A DNA stretch of 64,000 nucleotides from Alphaproteobacteria bacterium (GTDB lineage Bacteria; Pseudomonadota; Alphaproteobacteria; SHVV01). The notes under the pieces were generated by a model that was not told where the DNA came from, did no database searches, and saw only the letters and a list, made by a program, of their open reading frames with translations. Positions 45,699-57,810 of this stretch are shown here, piece after piece; the stretch's first letter is position 1; the number at the start of each line of letters is the position of its first letter. The stretch lies in assembly GCA_965261735.1 (NCBI GenBank), contig OZ253470.1:3360001-3424000 (forward strand), in the 5' to 3' direction. Both the position numbers and the translations under genes were made by a program.

Positions 45699-46841
45699 AT
45701 GGCGCTACGCCTGATACATACGTCAGACTGGCAGATCGGGAAGGTATTCCGGTTTGTCGATAATGCGACGATGGGACTCCTTCAGGAAGCGCGTCTTGGA
45801 GCTATTGCGCGCCTAGGAGAGCTTGCCGGTGAGCATGCTGCCCGGCACATACTGGTCGCCGGCGATGTCTACGATATGGAGGCACTGTCGCCGCGCTCGG
45901 TTAACCAGCCCCTTGAACGGATGCGCAGCTTCGCGGACGTTCATTGGCACTTGTTGCCAGGGAACCATGACCCCCATCGCCCGAACGGGCTCTGGGATCA
46001 GCTTCAGCGCAAGGGCTTGCCTGACAACGTGCACATTCATATCGCGGCGGAGCCCGCCATCTTTGAGGGAGATTCGTTCGCTCTCTTACCCGCGCCATTG
46101 CACCGTCGCCGCACGCTTGGTGATCCGACCACCTATATGGATGATGTGGACCTGCCGGACGGTCTTGTGCGCATAGGGCTAGCCCACGGCACCGTGACTG
46201 GCTTCGGGTCGGACGACAGGGATGTCCCAAATTACATCGCCCCGGACCGTCCTGCACGCGCGGCCCTGTCCTATCTCGCTCTTGGCGACTGGCATGGCCA
46301 GAAGAAGGTCAACGACCGGTGCTGGTATAGCGGTACGCCAGAGACAGACGCATTCGATGTGATCGACGGCGGTCAGGCTCTGCTCGTCGAAATTGAAGGA
46401 CCGGGAGCGGCTCCCGTGGTGACGCCAGTGCCAACGGGGCACTATGCATGGATCATGCTTTCAGAGCAGATCAATAGCCGGGTAGATATCGATTATCTGG
46501 TGAAAAAATTGCGGGGCGCTGCCGATGACCTTGGTTGCGTCCTGATCCATCTGGCGGTAGAAGGCACCCTGTCCCTGGGGCATCGTCAGTATTTTGACGA
46601 GCAGATCGTCGATGGCGTTTCAGCCGCGTTCTGTGCCATGCGCGTCGATGACCGCCGTGTGTTCCCGCAGCCGACACCTGATGATCTTGACCGGATCGAT
46701 CGCGGTGGCTTTGTGCGCACGGCCGCCGAAGAGCTAAACCGACTAGCCGAGGAGGGTGACGATGCTGAGCGTGGCATCGCCGCCGAAGCCCTGCAACGGC
46801 TTTATGTCGAGCACATGAAGCTGGATGCGGGGCGGCGATGA
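45699..46841 (+). CDS. SbcD/Mre11-like metallophosphoesterase nuclease
   Basis: HTSDWQIG, AGDVYD, PGNHD, AHG, LGDWHG, YSGTPE; likely start ATG 45699. Confidence 0.92.
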   Translation: MALRLIHTSDWQIGKVFRFVDNATMGLLQEARLGAIARLGELAGEHAARHILVAGDVYDMEALSPRSVNQPLERMRSFADVHWHLLPGNHDPHRPNGLWDQLQRKGLPDNVHIHIAAEPAIFEGDSFALLPAPLHRRRTLGDPTTYMDDVDLPDGLVRIGLAHGTVTGFGSDDRDVPNYIAPDRPARAALSYLALGDWHGQKKVNDRCWYSGTPETDAFDVIDGGQALLVEIEGPGAAPVVTPVPTGHYAWIMLSEQINSRVDIDYLVKKLRGAADDLGCVLIHLAVEGTLSLGHRQYFDEQIVDGVSAAFCAMRVDDRRVFPQPTPDDLDRIDRGGFVRTAAEELNRLAEEGDDAERGIAAEALQRLYVEHMKLDAGRR

Positions 46842-57300: not shown

Positions 57301-57810
57301 GAGGAGATACATGTCCAAGGCGGGCGAGAGCGTGGCTCGATACTGCACAAATTGATGGAAGAGGTGCTCACCGGAGAAACAGCGGGAGATACGGGACCGG
57401 TGCAGGTGCGGGCCGCTGAGCTTATCTCCCAACTCGGACTCGAGGATTCGCAAAATGCGTCGGAAGGACTGTCCAGCGATGAGATGGCAACCACGGTCAT
57501 GCGTACGCTGCAACTCCCCGAGATTCAGGCCCTGCGTCCACGGCTGGTTCCTGAGTTCCGGGTTTATGCGAGCGCCATCGAAGGCTGCGAAGAGACACTC
57601 ACGGCAGGCATTGCCGACGCAGTTGCCATCAATGAAGAAGGCCGCATTGACGTGGTCGTGGACTGGAAGAGTGACGTGAACGCCGGGGCCGGACAGATCG
57701 CAATGTATCAAAATCAGGTTCGCGACTACCTCCGATCAACCGCCGCGCAAACCGGACTCATCGTGTTTCTGGGTTCGGGTCGAATCGATAAGGTCGTGAT
57801 CGAAGATTGA
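54373..57810 (+). CDS. AddA-like UvrD/SF1A helicase with C-terminal RecB-type nuclease
   Basis: AGAGSGKT, ITFT, TIHGF, DEFQDT, VGDPKQAIYRFRGAD, TMHSAKGLEWP, YVALTRARD, GIADAV…DWKS; starts 1 nt after the addB-like stop. Confidence 0.92.
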   Translation: MAIDRMAARVSDAAARVAALTAHERSLLVEAGAGSGKTALMAGRVALLIGAGTDPKNIAAITFTEAAAAELLERIESIVRDLLSGQVPVELVEALPSGLTGAQQANLLNGAAALDEITCTTIHGFCQQLIRPYSVETSLDPGAAIIDPAAAELAYQDLMEAWLSARFGRDRGAQGLGRVPPIKDAGDGEDFFAELLLMAPDETLELIGRTAQFLKVHRTAQPAGTGIDQADFGRFADAIDAFASWYDSCGVAEQDTAVLIENLGPIANMAREAAMQPLTGRRIANMLFHHPPSACKKGEREFKQWRAKTRWKNAVKTVGGSAAQGEQLNAAGEARYSACAEAYGALCDNLGALAFQRFVDEFEALRDLYLDYKRNAAFLDFDDLLHQARDLLRNNETVRQELADLYSRILVDEFQDTDPVQVEIIWRLAGEGDPEAPWHEHALRPGALFLVGDPKQAIYRFRGADVQTYLVAKRALSNRDPSSVLEISANFRTREPILKYVNEHFEGMLDEAKGQPGFTALSATRSAGDEPSVAAFDIALDERHKNAKGRLLVARIRREEAALVADTARRLIGVYPVWDKHERKFRPARAGDIALLAPTGTSLWIYEQALERREIPIATQAGKGFFRRQEVQDLIAIARAIADSRDTLAFGALIRGPLVGLTEEQIADEIEALHARVEGSGRLNLWTDPGLISSALLRQTLAVLQNLARKARRTTPHHLLAEAVEELHVRSILKARHPRGAERALANVELVLEMARAYAGRGIGDFARALWRSWNNGDAQAEGRPDAEADAVSIITMHSAKGLEWPIVIPINSTSTPWSDTNFLYRRQDDSVHFKIFGFPSPGHETVQQEENAELRRERVRLWYVALTRARDLLLLPRQSERIEGDWFSLIGIDVETLPLFSDARFGGAPAADVDAGANAQDAATWEREAAAIAANQRRITWHQPSRHEDPAESAREPEAVFANADAILEAIAAEAEEIHVQGGRERGSILHKLMEEVLTGETAGDTGPVQVRAAELISQLGLEDSQNASEGLSSDEMATTVMRTLQLPEIQALRPRLVPEFRVYASAIEGCEETLTAGIADAVAINEEGRIDVVVDWKSDVNAGAGQIAMYQNQVRDYLRSTAAQTGLIVFLGSGRIDKVVIED

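Follow-up and report, generated by a model that had tools for sequence, protein, structure and literature searches.

A five-gene cluster of SbcDC-like, OLD and AddAB-like genes in an alphaproteobacterial genome comprises two separately moving modules

The DNA analysed here, called the window throughout, is a stretch of 64,000 nucleotides (nt) from the genome of an alphaproteobacterium of the GTDB lineage SHVV01 (GenBank assembly GCA_965261735.1, contig OZ253470.1, positions 3,360,001 to 3,424,000 of the forward strand; genome G000). Towards its right end lie five genes whose products resemble the DNA end-processing proteins SbcD and SbcC, an OLD-family nuclease, and the helicase-nuclease subunits AddB and AddA. 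The cluster is composed of two separately evolving and separately moving modules and is not one conserved five-gene system. The first module would consist of a divergent SbcDC-like pair with a fast-changing slot for defence cargo behind SbcC, filled here by a class-1-type OLD. The second would be a self-contained AddB/AddA-like pair, whose family resides on plasmids and in defence islands of several phyla, and which would be a recent, lineage-specific addition to SbcDC-OLD. With somewhat more confidence than doubt, the locus is best regarded as a defence-island mosaic in which the two modules have come together on a mobile block, a recent arrival in the lineage.

A preliminary description of the window, made from the sequence alone, proposed that the five genes form one candidate defence or end-processing system. 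Its account of the layout was confirmed when the open reading frames (ORFs) and the sequence were checked: five co-directional ORFs without internal stops span approximately 12 kb, the SbcD stop and the SbcC start overlap (ATGA), and gaps of 18 nt and 1 nt separate SbcC from OLD and AddB from AddA, respectively. For the AddB-like gene the ATG at 51684 was preferred over the TTG at 51636 of the ORF list. The genes (lengths in amino acids, aa) and the junction between the modules are as follows.

45699-46841, plus strand: SbcD-like, 380 aa; Pfam Metallophos, 31.6 bits
46838-49546, plus strand: SbcC-like, 902 aa; Pfam SMC_N, 40.4 bits, and AAA_27, 32.9 bits
49565-51493, plus strand: OLD, 642 aa; Pfam AAA_15, 116.3 bits, and OLD-like_TOPRIM, 43.1 bits (cut-off 23.2)
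51464-51656, no strand: module junction, that is, the last ~30 nt of the OLD coding sequence and most of the OLD-AddB spacer (blastn)
51684-54371, plus strand: AddB-like, 895 aa; Pfam PDDEXK_1, 60.6 bits
54373-57810, plus strand: AddA-like, 1145 aa; Pfam UvrD-helicase, 179.5 bits, and UvrD_C

The proposal of a single module did not survive comparison with other loci, as the AddAB-like and SbcDC(-OLD) parts differ in both nearest relatives and neighbourhoods. A scan for AddB-like genes in one genome per species (185,579 species) found 424 stretches, of which the 80 best loci were analysed with 10-kb flanks; a second scan, centred on SbcC, yielded 41 loci from metagenomes. An AddA-like gene stands directly behind the AddB-like gene in 79 of the 80 AddB-centred loci, the exception lying at a contig edge, and no other neighbour is common to more than 16 of them. 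SbcDC-like genes occur within 10 kb in only two (L031 from Inquilinus, where the modules are convergent, and L053, which has a remnant only) and OLD in one (L053), while AddAB-like genes are absent from all 41 SbcC-centred loci. Beyond L053, the nearest AddB-like relatives among the best 80 are Acidobacteriota/Terriglobia records (79-80%), and the named SbcC-like relatives are alphaproteobacterial (72-79%). By blastn, the window resembles SbcDC-OLD loci as far as 51434-51463 and AddAB-like loci only from 51657-51690 onwards. The junction of ~190 nt between them matches the relatives of neither module and is common only to the near relative L053, the locus of genome G002. It is also only this relative that shares the arrangement of the five genes, with SbcD and most of SbcC deleted, and across the 80 and 41 loci essentially no conserved synteny of the five-gene unit was found elsewhere.

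The two modules do meet in other places. Inquilinus (L031) and a Methylocystis plasmid each have both, at most 16 kb apart, in convergent orientation and with different genes between them (PDC-S46 and SIR2-HerA, respectively). Of 401 genomes sampled evenly across the class, 15 have SbcD-like genes; the SbcDC-like pair is patchy and mobile. When G000 is left out of this sample, two genomes have both SbcD-like and AddB-like genes, 12 only the former, five only the latter and 381 neither (one-sided Fisher p = 0.02, from small numbers and kin that are not independent).

The accessory and mobile nature of the locus, suggested in the preliminary description, is borne out. The housekeeping addAB genes of G000 lie at 706617-712942 and score 1208.7 and 983 bits, above both NCBIfam cut-offs. 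Of G000 and 40 related genomes, 41 in all, only G000 and G002 were found to carry the AddB-like gene and the orthologous OLD. Window positions 49013-57889 (plus strand) correspond to a block of G002 (L053 7327-16207) with 96.9% nucleotide identity over 8881 bp (blastn). The housekeeping AddA proteins of the two genomes are only 61% identical, and the block was therefore transferred recently. Both ends of the shared block abut insertion sequence (IS) elements; in G002 an IS6-type copy cuts the left end and an IS3-type element lies on the right (Pfam matches of the L053 flanks). All that G002 retains of SbcC is residues 724-902. Plasmid-borne copies are common in both families, with 109 records for SbcC-like genes and 60 for AddB-like genes, of which 63 and 39, respectively, are on conjugative plasmids. 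G000 has at least six copies with 99.3-99.8% identity to the IS6/IS240-type copies of G002 (L053 3074-3877 and 6521-7326), and the two lineages appear to exchange mobile DNA. Just beyond the right end of the shared block, between the AddA-like gene and the first IS110 gene, a 68-nt unit is present as a tandem duplicate with 98.5% identity (window 57925-58054).

The SbcDC-like pair departs from its canonical counterparts in consistent ways. Aligned to E. coli SbcD, the SbcD-like protein retains GDxxD and GNHD, and its motifs I and V are D-W-Q and G-D-W-H instead of the canonical D-x-H and G-H-x-H. Both are conserved family-wide: in 52 family sequences, counted over the eight commonest variants only, motif I is D-W-Q or D-L-Q, save for three listed variants with D-L-H. 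The match to TIGR00619 (45.7 bits) is below the cut-off of 77.65, and no gene in the G000 genome exceeds this cut-off as a canonical sbcD. The SbcC-like protein is a coiled-coil ABC ATPase with a non-coil middle stretch. Its Walker B motif is LDD rather than D-E, T-C-R takes the place of the expected H-loop histidine, and the CxxC motif of a zinc hook is absent from the whole protein; C101 and C876 are the only invariant cysteines of the family. It scores 40.4 bits against SMC_N (cut-off 40), stays below the NCBIfam Rad50/SbcC cut-off, and has Rad50 heads as weak solved relatives in the PDB (~1e-6). Since the odd motifs of the two proteins are conserved across the family, they are marks of a subfamily and not of decay. 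The genes also stay together: SbcD-like is directly upstream of SbcC-like in all 33 loci (of 41) that reach past the full SbcC start.

Four nuclease active sites and three ATPases had been predicted for the cluster. The motifs of the TOPRIM site and of the two RecB-type sites were read in the translations, and the Mre11-type site is the non-canonical one described above.

Similar genes, decayed or only weakly alike, occur elsewhere in G000. A second, decayed copy at C1:1656441-1660356 (L134 8442-12356) comprises a 3' remnant of an SbcC-like gene and a split PDC-S06 gene. The remnant (1656441-1657559) has 78.7% nucleotide identity over 1129 nt and ends exactly at the SbcC stop. The PDC-S06 (AAA_13) gene behind it is divided into ORFs of 600 and 362 aa, an IS6/IS240-type transposase gene is located directly upstream of the remnant, and a tyrosine integrase gene is nearby. 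At G000:C1:1183982-1184605 (L135 3215-4549) there is a weak SbcD-like gene, a 444-aa Metallophos ORF with 41% identity over residues 10-220, which adjoins an IS1595-type transposase gene.

The position behind SbcC, here termed the slot, is occupied by different genes in different loci. The SbcC 3' end is contained in 35 of the 41 loci, and 31 of those have at least 900 nt downstream. In these 31 loci the slot holds:

orthologous OLD, 9 of 31 loci (66-84% identity; one a remnant)
other OLD, 3 of 31
Gabija (GajA and GajB), 3 of 31 (L118, L120 and L127; full-length matches, three subtypes)
PDC-S06, 6 of 31 (two subtypes)
PDC-S46, 1 of 31
SIR2-HerA, 1 of 31 (on the opposite strand)
SngC (Shango) fragment, 1 of 31
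something else, 7 of 31

An OLD-family gene thus follows SbcC immediately in 15 of the 31 loci, and no restriction-modification, CRISPR, CBASS or toxin-antitoxin genes were present among the scanned ORFs behind SbcC. In a tree of 35 SbcC-like proteins, near-identical proteins are accompanied by different third genes: OLD in L102, PDC-S06 in L116 and another OLD in L103, or Gabija in L127, SIR2-HerA in L094 and PDC-S46 in L031. The orthologous OLD is spread over several clades of this tree, and its identity to the OLD of the window tracks that of SbcC (84/78, 80/70, 74/66 and 66/57% for OLD/SbcC). This tracking suggests long co-inheritance, and would fit an old triad in which the third gene has repeatedly been replaced. 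The close subfamily accounts for five of the 15 class genomes with SbcD-like genes, and four of these five have OLD, other OLD, PDC-S06 or PDC-S46 behind SbcC. More distant versions of the pair are accompanied in similar ways. On a Roseibium plasmid SbcD and SbcC are followed by OLD (32% identity) and then a fourth gene, Paracoccus pTAV4 has the order OLD-SbcD-SbcC, and on a Sphingomonas plasmid a Gabija-like pair lies 2 kb past SbcC. The link between SbcDC-like pairs and OLD is recurrent and not obligatory, and class-1-type OLD appears to be the ancestral as well as the commonest occupant of the slot. The literature searched (including PMC12663957 and PMC13069673), in its main texts, yielded no description of an SbcCD-like and OLD operon or of an AddAB-like defence pair. 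Within these limits, the recurrent association of a D-x-Q SbcD-like and hook-less SbcC-like pair with OLD-type and other ABC-ATPase defence genes appears to be new.

The OLD protein of the window has an ABC ATPase (Walker A GPNGAGKS, Walker B EEPE and an H-loop) and a TOPRIM domain with VEG and DADAD motifs. Its best PADLOC model is 'Old' (PDLC02358; 3.2e-47, 159.6 bits, for which the tool shows no curated cut-off), above any GajA model, and its best solved relative is the class-1 OLD of Thermus scotoductus (6p74, 4.5e-23). The five genes had been described as intact, and this is correct as regards internal stops, but the claim is weakened by the start of OLD, which is ATA. The codon lies 5 nt past the Shine-Dalgarno sequence GGAGGAGG, and the start of the frame is devoid of ATG, GTG and TTG. 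The first canonical start is a TTG at codon 21, just ahead of the P-loop, and from its use we infer the loss of the first strand of the ATPase fold. At the same position the nine orthologous loci have ATG (8/9) or TTG (1/9). In public sequencing runs, the A of the window at 49567 is retained in X2, and G is found there in X14 (21.1/21.1 depth) and in part of X6 (6.92/11.6), together with changes typical of G002. Because of the ATA start, and ATA being a poor initiator in bacteria, OLD is probably attenuated or silenced in this strain.

Transcription of the cluster is only hinted at. In public run X20, an RNA library, small contigs of 99% identity fall on OLD, AddB, the AddB/AddA junction and AddA, but DNA can occur in such libraries. 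A scan of positions 45200-58200 gave no promoter-like and three terminator-like sites, fewer than in shuffled sequences, and none at the module junction.

The AddAB-like pair has the architecture of AddAB: the A protein combines a superfamily 1 (SF1) helicase with a RecB nuclease, the B protein a helicase-like scaffold with a RecB nuclease, and the genes are adjacent. In AddB-like the RecB-type nuclease motifs IDRLD...TDYKSG...QRCLY are invariant in 12 relatives, and the helicase-like scaffold has no P-loop. AddA-like is an SF1 UvrD-type helicase, in the translation of which the C-terminal RecB-type motifs IADAV...VDWKS...QVRDY can be read. Neither is close to the housekeeping type. AddA-like scores 237.5 bits against TIGR02784 (addA_alphas; cut-off 860.75) and is 29% identical to the housekeeping AddA of G000, while AddB-like has no match to TIGR02786 (addB_alphas) and its sole NCBIfam match is to TIGR03623 (29 bits, cut-off 299.6). 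The best solved relative of AddA-like is B. subtilis AddA (3u44, 1.3e-40). For AddB-like no PDB match was obtained by sequence at E up to 0.1. The AlphaFold2 model of AddB-like, based on 12 sequences (mean predicted local distance difference test score 60.2, predicted template modelling (TM) score 0.36), lends weak support to the assignment: Foldseek places five B. subtilis AddB chains first (E 1e-15 to 5e-14), with TM scores of just 0.23-0.29. Bacillus AddB has a four-cysteine iron-sulfur cluster around the nuclease domain; as only C213 and C790 are invariant among the 12 family members of AddB-like, there is no such four-cysteine site here. The pair is an accessory helicase-nuclease of mobile and defence regions, and the function of the family is predicted from these features.

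The surroundings of AddAB-like pairs are rich in matches to defence genes. Of their immediate neighbours, 31 out of 90 scanned had PADLOC matches at or below 1e-10; as the 90 are a biased sample of 150 listed ORFs, this is not an unbiased rate. The 60 unscanned neighbours belong mostly to a Latescibacterota/Gemmatimonadota clade with polysaccharide and membrane-protein neighbours, and the rest are repeats of a WYL/helicase clade. Six of the 31 are ankyrin-repeat or WYL matches. The matched genes include restriction or modification genes (type I methylase, DrmMII-type methylase, BrxL and SspC), parts of Azaca and Shango (ZacA, ZacB, ZacC and SngC), abortive-infection and other effectors (SIR2, AbiEi, AbiEii, PD-T4-4_A, Ppl, IetA and BilD) and the candidate systems PDC-S06 and PDC-S46, with PDC-S70, PbeA, WYL and ankyrin repeats as weaker or less specific matches. 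On plasmids the pair was seen in three contexts: behind a trio of TerB-N protein, ATPase and helicase (by record annotation only), which we take to be Shango-like; behind a nucleotidyltransferase-E1-JAB cluster with a WYL regulator; and convergent with a set of SbcDC-like, SIR2 and ATP-binding-protein genes. SngC models match the helicase ORF upstream of the AddAB-like pair in the related loci L079 and L084. Acidobacteriota genomes have up to three AddAB-like pairs.

Two of these neighbourhoods have a more regular layout. On a Sulfitobacter plasmid (L133 3972-19385) six co-directional, closely spaced genes encode TerB-N, an ATPase, a DEAD/DEAH helicase, AddB-like, AddA-like and a second large helicase, and in one clade the AddAB-like pair may belong to a more extensive unit that resembles Shango in its annotation. 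In the alphaproteobacterial clade L069-L089 (47-49% identity) a divergent gene for a WYL-domain protein is found directly upstream of AddB-like, and a gene for a ~1113-aa ResIII helicase, ZacA/ZacB or SIR2 is found downstream. The WYL cluster was present in 16 of the 80 AddB-centred loci, 14 of which are in this clade, and the upstream gene hints at regulation of the DNA-damage type.

How the proteins might work together can be outlined from studies of related enzymes. According to a preprint, P2 OLD is an abortive nuclease triggered by single-stranded DNA hairpins and unprocessed DNA ends; SbcCD and RecBCD or phage recombination proteins oppose its activation, and Gam inhibits both SbcCD and RecBCD. 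Similarly, a preprint on Gabija states that RecBCD activity shields DNA from that system. By analogy, the OLD of the window would be an abortive-infection ABC-ATPase/TOPRIM nuclease, a killing or arresting effector that fires when unprocessed ends or hairpins accumulate. The SbcDC-like complex would clear hairpins and blocked ends from self DNA and degrade linear invader DNA, and the AddAB-like enzyme would resect ends, again clearing triggers from self DNA and attacking linear invader DNA. OLD would then be triggered only when a phage inhibits or saturates these enzymes. In a host that has no canonical sbcCD, such an OLD would benefit from being accompanied by an SbcDC-like pair of its own. 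The two preprints make it plausible that OLD is linked to the end and hairpin processors as a guard, and they lend outside support to the guard role suggested for OLD in the preliminary description.

Several findings weigh against the view of the locus as a working mosaic of two defence modules. Judged by their non-canonical catalytic motifs, the SbcD-like and SbcC-like proteins are not assured of nuclease and ATPase activity, and the functional tie among the products is suggested by gene neighbourhood. The complete and orderly set of five is retained by neither lineage, the OLD of the window being without a canonical start and SbcDC being deleted from G002. Some genomes in which no SbcD-like match was detected have OLD genes of greater divergence (29-33% identity), and the more divergent chromosomal SbcDC-like pairs (26-34% identity in SbcC) are surrounded by ordinary metabolic genes. 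In seven of the 31 loci the slot is empty or holds a non-defence gene, and in others it is occupied by complete systems, Gabija and SIR2-HerA, which can do without an SbcDC partner; much of the slot pattern is therefore accounted for by integration at a hotspot alone. As many of the 31 loci are near-duplicates (L091=L113; L098/L111/L128; L095/L096; L108/L125), the independent slot events are also fewer than the counts imply.

It is a real, if unlikely, possibility that the SbcDC-like pair serves in repair or plasmid maintenance and lies only by chance beside a hotspot for the integration of defence genes. OLD, SbcDC-like and AddAB-like would then act independently and adjoin one another only through clustering in defence islands and shuffling by IS elements, a reading that fits much of the data equally well. 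The different third genes behind near-identical SbcC proteins would be expected from such a hotspot, as would the self-sufficient systems and the seven loci without a defence gene. The AddAB-like pair adjoins many unrelated systems, and the window itself is dense in IS elements and integrases and has a type II restriction-modification pair. However, the slot is strongly skewed towards ABC-ATPase nucleases, which fill 22 of the 31 loci (15 of them OLD family), and restriction-modification, CRISPR, CBASS and toxin-antitoxin genes are missing from the scanned ORFs behind SbcC. In addition, OLD is linked to SbcDC-like pairs at three divergence depths and in two gene orders, and the parallel identities of OLD and SbcC suggest long co-inheritance.

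In a further reading, which we regard as rather doubtful, OLD-type and related ABC-ATPase abortive nucleases (Old, GajA, PDC-S06 and PDC-S46) would travel with a portable D-x-Q SbcD-like/hook-less SbcC-like complex which clears hairpins and ends and so sets the threshold between self and invader, and the window would be the fullest form of this arrangement, with AddAB-like added. If this were true, it would define a new class of defence, a 'sensor-effector plus cis-encoded substrate remover', and one cassette would combine OLD with stand-ins for SbcCD and RecBCD, the enzymes reported to restrain P2 OLD in E. coli.

The original proposal, that of one integrated five-gene machine uncapping and degrading invading DNA, is improbable. 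The genes are tightly spaced and co-directional, the SbcC(3')-OLD-AddB-AddA block was transferred between two genera as a unit, and the Inquilinus and Methylocystis juxtapositions and the co-occurrence of the two modules among genomes (subject to the limits of that test) point in the same direction. But no second lineage has this gene order, the partner module is missing from 78 of 80 AddAB-like and 41 of 41 SbcC-like loci, and in the two other juxtapositions the modules are convergent with different intervening genes. The junction is unlike the relatives of either module, and parts have been lost in both lineages: SbcD and most of SbcC in G002, the ATG of OLD in the window. Finally, that the genes are not for defence at all and serve accessory repair or element maintenance, processing the ends and hairpins of plasmids or of integrative and conjugative elements during transfer and replication, is very improbable: both pairs are indeed common on conjugative plasmids (63/109 and 39/60), a coupling-protein gene of a type IV secretion system follows OLD in L111, distant SbcDC-like pairs lie among housekeeping genes and addB-addA-sbcD-sbcC of B. 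subtilis is a repair operon, but OLD belongs to a known abortive-infection nuclease family (PADLOC 'Old', 3.2e-47) and known defence genes abound around both pairs.

Outside the cluster, too, the window is a mixture of IS elements, two integrase genes and a pair of type II restriction-modification genes. As had been described, IS elements are located on both sides of the cluster and a tRNA-Met gene upstream of it (ARAGORN, Rfam and Pfam). The flanking features are:

43231-43307, plus strand: tRNA-Met(CAT) (ARAGORN, Rfam), at the end of a 16S-Ile-Ala-23S-5S-Met rRNA operon; given for context only
43941-45295, minus strand: decayed IS with a DDE_Tnp_1_4 transposase split into overlapping ORFs 44198-45295 and 43941-44621 (Pfam)
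58446-59486, 59776-60885 and 62152-63174, minus strand: three IS110-family transposase genes (Pfam)
61143-61979, plus strand: rve fragment (Pfam), among the IS110 genes of 58446-63174

The separate ORFs of the split transposase match profile positions 5-269 and 261-431 of DDE_Tnp_1_4 (Pfam). The tRNA-Met gene was considered as an integration site and rejected, no direct repeat of it of at least 13 nt being present elsewhere within the window. Farther to the left, the restriction-modification pair is encoded on the minus strand at 5801-8300, with a XamI-type endonuclease (5801-6721) and an Eco57I-type methylase (6714-8300), and is adjoined by a Y2-type transposase gene (3908-5770). Amid IS fragments at 14328-16877 there is a gene for an 849-aa protein with HD-CE and a GHKL-type ATPase domain (HATPase_c_3), which may be one more gene of a conflict system. 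On the minus strand at 17812-20437, two tyrosine integrase genes in tandem (399 and 467 aa) suggest nested genomic islands upstream of the rRNA operon. A match to a group II intron domain (Rfam, 48.3 bits; gathering score 40) is located at 1095-1198.

Relatives of the SbcCD and RecBCD activities are encoded beside OLD on mobile DNA, in a host without sbcD at the level of TIGR00619. If the link is functional, the locus would be a natural and compact test bed for how OLD-family nucleases tell self from invader; if it is not, this is an ordinary defence-island mosaic. In either case two unstudied, widespread families are brought to attention, the AddAB-like pair (the 424 stretches) and the D-x-Q SbcD-like/hook-less SbcC-like pair.

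As regards known systems, the combination had not been recognised as a named one in the preliminary description, and PADLOC-DB v2 indeed gave no full match to a named multi-gene system: OLD matched the single-gene 'Old' model, AddA-like only generic UvrD-helicase models, and SbcD-like and AddB-like nothing. Similarly to P2 Old and class 1 OLD (6p74), the OLD of the window has an ABC ATPase and a TOPRIM domain (E, DxD) and no helicase gene directly after it; it differs from P2 Old in its conserved place behind an SbcDC-like pair and in its ATA start codon. P2 OLD is reported in a preprint to cut tRNA. Gabija likewise clusters an OLD-family nuclease with a UvrD-family helicase. However, the OLD of the window scores 79 bits with GajA and 160 bits with 'Old', GajB models (type ~500-650 aa) match only part of the 1145-aa AddA-like protein, and the AddB-like nuclease gene intervenes, the helicase being part of a separate two-gene module. 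Membership of Gabija was rejected, the next gene being AddB-like and 'Old' outscoring GajA.

With Lamassu the SbcC-like protein shares a Rad50-related coiled-coil ABC ATPase and exchangeable nuclease partners, and it has a weak match to LmuB (1.6e-15). Unlike in Lamassu, an Mre11-like partner is present, and the LmuB match covers only the C-terminal half. LmuA and LmuC had no match among the five proteins in PADLOC-DB v2, and with the partial LmuB match this led us to reject Lamassu membership. Similarly to SbcCD/Mre11-Rad50, the window pair is a phosphoesterase gene overlapping a coiled-coil ABC ATPase gene, but it falls below the family cut-offs, has D-x-Q, G-D-W-H and LDD, and is devoid of the H-loop histidine and of CxxC. 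The N-terminal AAA_27 match of SbcC-like is of the YhaN type and points to a possible kinship with B. subtilis SbcEF (YhaO/YhaN); SbcE is described as having a unique central domain, and the SbcC-like protein has its non-coil middle stretch.

The second module is two adjacent helicase/nuclease genes, as in AddAB (B. subtilis 3u44/4ceh), AdnAB and RecBCD, and differs from AddAB in scoring far below the equivalog cut-offs and in its plasmid and defence-island habitat. Accessory SF1 helicases with a PD-(D/E)XK nuclease are also represented by the UvrD-Cas4-like fusions of defence islands, which are described beside varied defence systems and WYL regulators and proposed to be ancillary to the adjoining systems (PMC5704561). 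Those are single fused proteins of another pfam12705 branch, whereas the pair in the window consists of two subunits with the architecture of AddAB.

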